IMG/VR virus record: IMGVR_UViG_2541047501_000021
Span: 1-10,764 of that record
Origin: a virus
Taxonomy: Duplodnaviria > Heunggongvirae > Uroviricota > Caudoviricetes
Length of the DNA: 10,764 bases
Direction: 5' to 3' (one strand)
The notes beneath the pieces are model-generated. The model did no database searches. It saw only the letters and a list, made by a program, of their open reading frames with translations, and had not been told where the DNA came from. Made by a program: the position numbers and the translations under genes. Positions 6,548 to 6,765 of this stretch are shown in pieces. The first letter of the stretch is position 1, and the number at the start of each line of letters is the position of its first letter.

Positions 6548-6587
6548 TTTTCTGGTGATTCGGCGGAAATGGATATCCGCCCTTTTT
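6548..6587 (+). ncRNA. dicF: DicF-like sRNA, shortened variant, with intrinsic terminator
   Basis: TTTCTGGTGA followed by hairpin GGCGGA (6562-6567), loop AATGGATA, TCCGCC (6576-6581) and TTTTT (6583-6587). It sits upstream of dicB as in Qin, with downstream TTTTTAAAGTGAATTTTGTGATG resembling the K-12 dicF-dicB spacer as I recall it. The 5' end is not defined. Confidence 0.5.
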
Positions 6588-6765
6588 AAAGTGAATTTTG
6601 TGATGCGGTGAATGCGGCTATGCGCACGCGGAACAGTTAAAGCAGTAAGGCGGTCTTTTACTGGCGTAACGAGCATCAACTAACCCGACGTTAATTGTTA
6701 ACTGGTTAACGTCACCTGGAGGCACCAGGCACTGCATCACAAAATTCATTGTTGAGGACGCGATA

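Follow-up and report, generated by a model that had tools for sequence, protein, structure and literature searches.

A short dicF allele without the ftsZ-pairing hairpin interior in the dicB operon of a lambdoid prophage

The dicB operon and its short dicF allele

We analyzed a 10,764-nt stretch of a Caudoviricetes genome (IMG/VR record IMGVR_UViG_2541047501_000021, positions 1 to 10,764; hereafter, the window) that carries an early operon in which a DicA-like repressor gene is followed by a PaaA2/ParE pair, a DUF1391 (ydfA-like) gene, two unnamed ORFs, dicF, dicB, a DUF1482 gene and an exonuclease VIII gene. The gene order is the same as that of K-12 dicA-ydfA...dicF-dicB. The features considered here are the following:

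3969..4370 (+), HTH repressor of the DicA/CI type, which heads the early operon on the same strand (Pfam HTH_3 and Phage_CI_repr)
6400..6548 (+), upstream untranslated leader, near-identical to the K-12 Qin and O157 loci (alignment)
6549..6587 (+), short dicF allele, which starts where the K-12 DicF 5' end maps and extends through the last base of the U-run (K-12 alignment)
6549..6561 (+), 5' single-stranded stretch UUUCUGGUGAUUC, 13 nt (fold and K-12 alignment)
6562..6581 (+), terminator hairpin with a stem of 6 bp (GGCGGA/UCCGCC) and an 8-nt loop, AAUGGAUA (fold and terminator scan)
6582..6587 (+), CUUUUU tail, same as the K-12 DicF tail (alignment and terminator scan)
6588..6765 (+), structured dicF-dicB spacer, a sub-threshold relative of STnc100 and separate from the sRNA
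6766..6954 (+), dicB, cell division inhibitor, class II variant, 62 aa (Pfam PF05358)
6951..7139 (+), DUF1482 gene at the ydfD position (Pfam PF07358, 56.3 bits), the last small gene before the exonuclease VIII gene
7232-8476, exonuclease VIII gene (Pfam Exonuc_VIII)

As a prophage sRNA that blocks cell division, DicF is a textbook case, and it has also been linked to metabolism and to EHEC virulence. The traits of the family are a 5' end made by RNase E, dependence on Hfq and filamentation upon overexpression.

For alignment, we used the annotated dicF locus of the K-12 prophage Qin (NC_000913.3, 1649382-1649434) as the reference. The two loci are almost identical over about 150 nt before and about 60 nt after the element, and they differ in length at only two points, by a 2-nt gap after GGTGA and by a 17-nt gap within the hairpin. 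Given these near-identical flanks, the homology to dicF rests on position and is not a chance resemblance: window positions 6549-6587 (+), with the sequence TTTCTGGTGATTCGGCGGAAATGGATATCCGCCCTTTTT, occupy exactly the K-12 dicF position in a lambdoid prophage dicB operon, downstream of ydfA-C type genes and some 170-180 nt ahead of dicB. The leader at 6400..6548 is the 3' UTR of the upstream genes, includes the site where the K-12 DicF 5' end arises, and is conserved also in phage Evi and partly in Stx2c phages.

The predicted short RNA is 39 nt long, compared with 58 nt for K-12 DicF, both including the U-tail. Besides the locus, the leader, the spacer and the downstream dicB, the two share the first 10 nt, which are identical, the GGCGG/CCGCC base of the stem and the CUUUUU tail. 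In the 5' stretch of the short allele, the CG of DicF nt 11-12 is absent (GACGUUU to GA--UUC) and DicF nt 15, the third U of the UUU just before the hairpin, is replaced by C, so that 10 of the 15 nt of the xylR-pairing 5' region of DicF (UUUCUGGUGACGUUU) are kept in the short allele (UUUCUGGUGA). The hairpin, formed by GGCGGA at 6562-6567 and TCCGCC at 6576-6581, differs from that of K-12 DicF (RF00039, 53 nt) in that the allele is 19 nt shorter and lacks the interior that pairs with ftsZ, pykA and manX; moreover, the sixth stem pair is U.G in K-12 but A-U in the short allele, as in other hairpin types. The short allele is further marked by a unique k-mer, GGCGGAAAUGGAUAUCCGCC, and by a C at base -2, where long alleles have A.

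With an MFE of -10.7 kcal/mol, the fold of the short RNA is by itself unremarkable, because its z-score is only -1.2 relative to shuffled sequences. In a consensus terminator scan, the hairpin and T-run at 6562-6581 (+) conform to the intrinsic terminator pattern, and 12 terminator-like sites were found in the region against 4.0 +/- 1.9 in shuffled sequences.

The RF00039 covariance model of DicF gave no match at its gathering score (48 bits) across the whole window and none in 6400-6800 even at E <= 10, whereas K-12 dicF, the positive control, scored 76.7 bits (E = 2.4e-17). This miss does not count against homology, because the flanks prove the orthologous position. By position and descent, the element is thus a dicF allele; by the RF00039 model and the defining ftsZ-pairing arm, it is not a DicF.

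The original prediction of a dicF homolog with a much shorter hairpin, which absence of homology to K-12 dicF would have contradicted, is therefore borne out by the flanks, which align to both the K-12 Qin and the O157 dicF loci. The figure of roughly 25 nt for the K-12 hairpin interior is also accurate, with 26 nt between GGCGG and GCCGCC there and an 8-nt loop here. The proposed DicF-like 5' part holds for the first 10 nt, but the RNA starts at 6549 rather than 6548 and its 5' region is altered as well. The extent of a single sRNA feature, given as 6548-6765, has to be revised, with 6588-6765 being a separate structured spacer.

The ORF of dicB is intact, as had been proposed: the product, 67% identical to K-12 DicB, matches PF05358 with 124.5 bits (cut-off 27) over residues 1-62 of 62. 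An intact dicB is likewise present in all 30 short-allele loci with enough contig. We observed two DicB classes, a K-12-like one (...EIGVTISNPVF...ELLNKICI...) and a second one (...DIGVLLSN..F...YEPYLLNDNSIL...); the short dicF occurs mostly with the second class, which also accompanies long dicF.

Two further observations concern the upstream part of the operon. A PaaA2-type antitoxin and a ParE-family toxin are encoded at 4398-4876 (+), between the DicA-like repressor and the ydfA-like gene, with a terminator-like site nearby at 4895-4910. In the untranslated stretch upstream of dicF lies an antisense ORF of 85 aa (6027-6284, -) with CxxC...CPEH motifs; in a related prophage (L004, 10025-10210), a shorter version bears the annotation "hypothetical protein". 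A promoter-like site is located on the same strand at 6118-6091.

The dicF-dicB spacer is predicted to fold into a 20-bp closing helix (6591-6610 with 6730-6749) that encloses several hairpins, with an MFE of -64.4 kcal/mol, and an RNAalifold consensus was built from 43 distinct spacers; the ribosome-binding site of dicB, GAGGA, lies just after this helix. The spacer sequences are too similar for covariation to test the fold, with a single double compensatory change among them. In a cmscan search, the STnc100 model (RF02076) aligned to the spacer (6594-6743 to model positions 21-154) with 29.3 bits (E = 1e-4), below the gathering score of 47, and the K-12 spacer was similarly sub-threshold (34.1 bits). 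The closing helix and the CACCUGGAGGCACCAGG hairpin are common to the spacer and STnc100, and the likeness concerns the spacer, not the short dicF; judging from these scores, the spacer would be, at best, a distant relative of STnc100. The center of the spacer comes in several exchangeable versions, ranging from 172 to 185 nt. Two of them, of 181 and 185 nt, accompany long as well as short dicF, and the short allele with the 172-nt version was never seen in the fetched sample.

K-12 DicF also has a 72-nt RNase III form (PMC9438474), the 3' end of which would fall in the 5' arm of the spacer helix. An RNase III site in this helix is accordingly predicted because the 72-nt form would end within that arm. 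In Stx phages, a STnc100-like spacer with the 20-bp closing helix is found in front of kil, and the hairpin upstream of it lacks the DicF 5' sequence. The hairpin, the spacer and a division inhibitor thus form a shared module.

Predicted pairing of the short RNA with DicF targets

In K-12, the 3' region of DicF pairs with the ribosome-binding site (RBS) of ftsZ and its 5' end pairs with xylR within the first 10 codons, pykA being a further direct target (PMC5069750). In the literature, manX is an additional DicF target, and pchA is activated by pairing at an anti-SD in its coding region. We scanned for duplexes between each sub-window of the sRNA and the K-12 leaders, with unpairing energies added; duplex folding of the whole sRNA yielded unrealistic full-length duplexes and was replaced by this sub-window scan. 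The sites obtained for K-12 DicF agree with the published ones, namely, the 3' region for ftsZ and the 5' end and first 10 codons for xylR. The predicted sites are:

ftsZ, site -29..-7: K-12 DicF nt 32-53, -22.9 kcal/mol; best RBS contact of the short RNA, -7.5
pykA, site -19..+1: K-12 DicF nt 26-43, -22.5 kcal/mol; no equivalent site for the short RNA
manX, site +34..+53: K-12 DicF nt 35-54, -33.4 kcal/mol; no equivalent site for the short RNA
xylR, site +9..+20: K-12 DicF nt 6-15, 10 bp, -15.9 kcal/mol; short RNA about 6 bp, -9.1

For the short RNA, no ftsZ site equivalent to the K-12 pairing was found in the accessibility-corrected scan. In these models, the short RNA loses or weakens every DicF pairing that has experimental support. 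Energy-based duplex prediction is unable to prove that regulation is absent, and the short RNA may have other targets. The type C allele described below retains the xylR pairing, and its predicted ftsZ RBS pairing is absent in the same scan, which suggests that the ftsZ arm is specific to the K-12-type interior.

These results match the expectation that the missing segment holds the ftsZ-pairing nucleotides, in agreement with published pairing (PMC5069750), and that targets would be altered or lost: among the ftsZ, xylR and pykA leaders for which target prediction had been proposed, the ftsZ and pykA sites are lost and the xylR duplex drops from 10 to about 6 bp, while manX pairing is also gone and pairing at the predicted pchA anti-SD is weakened.

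For pchA (Sakai ECs_1091), the SD region pairs best with coding positions +140..+168, and the predicted anti-SD is likely +156..+165. There, the long RNA is predicted to bind +145..+158 through nt 2-15 (-14.6), and the short RNA only +150..+158 (-10.5). At a second site, +93..+106, which is conserved in pchC, the short RNA is slightly favored (-13.2 versus -10.8 for the long RNA). The duplexes of the short RNA with pchA and pchC at +93..+106 and +150..+158 comprise 8-9 bp. We rejected +93..+106 as a candidate target of the short RNA and draw no conclusion from this pairing, since shuffled 5' regions reach such energies in 8.5% of cases; pairing at the anti-SD is worse than that of the long RNA.

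Two matches to the 5' region were noted within the window. A perfect 10-nt complement of nt 4-13 of the short allele (CUGGUGAUUC) lies at 1185-1194 (-), within a DnaC-like ORF (594-1340); as a target, it was set aside as probably due to chance, with about 0.08 such matches expected and the same backbone occurring elsewhere with a long allele. A second copy of TTTCTGGTGAA, in the sense of the dicF 5' end, is located 520 nt downstream at 7072-7082 (+), in the DUF1482 ORF; for any given 10-mer, the expected number of occurrences in the window is about 0.02. This second copy is also present in two other fetched loci (L001 and L002) and in Sakai (2708201) and is absent from K-12 ydfD.

Distribution of the short allele and versions of the hairpin

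We searched 5426 complete E. coli genomes with a 48-nt query specific for the short form. The short allele was detected in 442 of them, at 528 places, with a 100% match in 315 of the 442 genomes and one or two differing bases in the remainder. The K-12-type long form is present in 4011 genomes, at 7244 places. The short allele was also found in Escherichia albertii (L009) and in 26 IMG/VR or metagenome loci; it is in none of the deposited phage genomes, which show long-type or other versions. Being conserved and widespread, the short allele is not a one-off decay product.

O157:H7 genomes have the identical short allele. In the O157:H7 strain Sakai, it is located at 2707678-2707716 (+) in prophage Sp14, between ECs_2767 and dicB (ECs_2768), adjoining serU and mtfA, and Sp14 also carries pchC. 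Strain PV15-279, also O157:H7, carries the long form at four places and the short form at one. Four dicF copies in EHEC are given in reviews (PMC7873438, citing Melson and Kendall 2019), and Balasubramanian et al. studied only copies more than 99% identical to K-12 dicF (PMC5069750). The four EHEC copies share the type of prophage locus and the genomes with the short allele but are full-length places, to which the short place is additional. Because four long places and one short place were found, the reviews give four copies, and the published analysis covered copies more than 99% identical to K-12, the short Sp14 locus is most likely an uncounted fifth dicF locus of O157:H7.

The sequence has been public since the Sakai genome and, in the literature searched, appears never to have been named or tested; this literature holds no report of a DicF-like variant, a paralog or the Sakai short locus. 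The available part of the text of the Tree 2014 supplementary files does not mention the short allele, an absence of little weight given such partial text. The same holds for the partial supplement text of the Sakai RNase E CLASH study (Waters 2017), which gives hybrids for two full-length copies, dicF and dicF-1, and no hybrid reads with the short-allele sequence.

Across 154 occurrences surveyed among the fetched loci that carry the dicF position, we found the K-12-type long form (in several SNP variants), the short form (four sub-variants) and a third form, type C. Across the 33 short-allele loci, the first 13 nt, stem and tail are invariant except for one stem-base C-to-U change that keeps a G.U pair, and all other changes, which define the remaining sub-variants, are SNPs at two loop sites. 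Since diversity is low and the loci are related, this pattern is a weak hint of constraint. In long-allele loci, DicF nt 11 is polymorphic (G in 83, A in 10 and U in at least 5 loci); this position lies within the xylR-pairing stretch, where the short allele misses 2 nt.

The type C allele (E. albertii L013; IMG/VR L027 and L107) has the sequence GGCGGCATCTGTTTGCCCATGAACTGATGTCCGCC. It shares with the short allele the GGCGG(A/C)...GAT(G/A)TCCGCC stem, the U-tail and the spacer but keeps the full 5' stretch GGUGACGUUU and has a 35-nt hairpin, reaching 56 nt with the tail. Shigella phage 75/02 Stx and its relatives carry GGCGGACATCGGTTTGCCGATTGCTGATGTCCGCC, a U-run and the same downstream spacer (L170, 600-900); here, too, the stem, U-tail and spacer are as in the short allele, but the DicF 5' sequence is missing and the hairpin precedes kil, not dicB. 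Stx2c phages have yet another hairpin at the dicF position. Altogether, at least five sequence versions at this position, before dicB or kil, keep a hairpin with a U-run.

The stem of the short allele, GGCGGA...GATATCCGCC, follows the pattern GGCGGA...GAT(A/G)TCCGCC common to type C and 75/02, whereas K-12 has GGCGGU...CUGCCGCC. Because its stem is common to those two and not to K-12, the short allele is better viewed as a truncated member of the type C/75/02 hairpin lineage than as K-12 DicF with a deletion. The hairpin is indeed shortened relative to K-12, as proposed at the outset, but a simple K-12 deletion does not account for it.

The prophage that matches the window best overall (98.8% over 1-6870), in E. 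coli 2013C-3277, has a long dicF at the same spot, and window positions 6271-9329 are 98.9% identical to an IMG/VR prophage with a short dicF. The window is thus a mosaic, with an exchange around 6271-6870, and this combination of a long-allele match on the left and a short-allele match on the right indicates that dicF alleles are swapped by recombination within one backbone. Separately, copies of the dic spacer with 81-85% identity occur in MT713136.1 (Aeromonas phage AP1) and PP818812.1 (Actinobacillus phage vB_Apl-pPE4); these are unexpected for the hosts and could reflect contamination or transfer.

Possible roles of the short dicF

On balance, we consider it probable that the short dicF is a cis-acting terminator/processing module in front of dicB whose RNA product does not inhibit ftsZ. 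The allele keeps the first 10 nt of DicF, the GC-rich stem base and the U-run, and it lacks the interior that in K-12 DicF pairs with ftsZ, pykA and manX as well as 2 nt of the xylR stretch. The hairpin and U-run are predicted to act as a partial intrinsic terminator, or attenuator, in front of dicB and, jointly with the conserved leader and the 20-bp spacer helix, would keep the processing architecture of the operon. Transcripts that end at the hairpin or are cut in the spacer helix would yield RNAs of about 39 or about 53 nt, which, with the complementarity lost, are predicted to be unable to block ftsZ translation; if so, division inhibition by the operon would rest on DicB alone. A role in cis is consistent with the sparing of the stem by polymorphism, the retention of the hairpin and U-run in all versions, and the intact dicB in 30 of 30 loci. 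Furthermore, the occurrence of the hairpin, U-run and spacer before kil without the DicF 5' sequence suggests that the conserved role of the module is likely structural and in cis.

The perfectly conserved first 10 nt hint at a role in trans or in processing, because a pure terminator needs no such sequence. It is possible, although unlikely, that the allele is a functional, Hfq-dependent sRNA acting in trans through its seed, in which the 5' UUUCUGGUGA(UUC) sits on a minimal terminator scaffold and regulates a reduced or re-targeted set of mRNAs, which could be recognized through DicF nt 1-10 or be new targets that match GGUGAUUC. The layout, with a single-stranded 5' seed, a GC hairpin and a U-tail, is sRNA-like, nt 1-13 are invariant in the 33 loci, and intact operons of both E. 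coli and E. albertii have retained the allele; the 8-9 bp duplexes with pchA and pchC (-13.2 and -10.5) and the presence of pchC in Sp14 itself fit as well. However, the flanks are equally conserved, so that conservation of the seed is not specific evidence, and the pchA energies are reached by 8.5% of the 5'-region shuffles. At the predicted anti-SD, the short RNA (-10.5) falls behind the long one (-14.6), the U-stretch before the hairpin is reduced from UUU in K-12 to UU, and the RNase E CLASH supplement text available for Sakai shows no matching hybrid reads.

We regard as improbable a neutral decay remnant, in which a deletion removed DicF function and the unselected spot hitch-hikes with dicB and the prophage. 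The predicted loss or weakening of every experimentally supported DicF pairing would be expected of such a remnant, and diversity is too low to prove purifying selection; in addition, DicF is toxic when expressed (PMC5069750), so that its loss could be tolerated or favored. Yet the hairpin is clean, and the few polymorphisms spare pairing, falling at loop sites or preserving a G.U pair. The presence of a hairpin and U-run in at least five versions before dicB or kil argues that the hairpin itself is needed, and the occurrence of the allele with several spacer modules and DicB variants argues that it has survived recombination as a unit. As for an assembly or sequencing artifact or a part of a coding frame, two mechanically called ORFs overlap the short dicF (6498-6611, +, and 6461-6679, -), but these have no family support and are unannotated in related records, the alleles differ by 19 nt, which is not a multiple of three, and the identical sequence is found in hundreds of independently finished genomes. 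The probability of either reading is negligible, and both were dismissed given the occurrence in many genomes and the lack of ORF support.

The short dicF may be simply a trimmed terminator. A more far-reaching proposal, which we consider rather unlikely, is that the short allele encodes a "detoxified" DicF that is expressed and bound by Hfq, retains the 5' seed alone on a minimal terminator scaffold and has its own regulon without ftsZ. Such a regulon could include targets of the allele-specific GGUGAUUC or the EHEC pch virulence activators. An active regulator of the DicF family would then remain in the O157:H7 strains published as "all-dicF" deletions, and the dicF position would be a hot spot at which prophages swap the targeting domain of an sRNA while keeping the seed, terminator and processing signals. 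More generally, if the short RNA is active, experiments with deletions of multiple dicF copies in EHEC would need re-reading.

Counts of dicF copies in pathogens are incomplete, given that family models miss a common short allele, and a dicB operon is no proof that an ftsZ-silencing RNA is present as well. The hairpin at the dicF position is a recombining, hypervariable cassette with at least five versions before dicB or kil, and these versions provide a natural series for separating the parts of DicF involved in regulation in trans from those involved in termination and processing.
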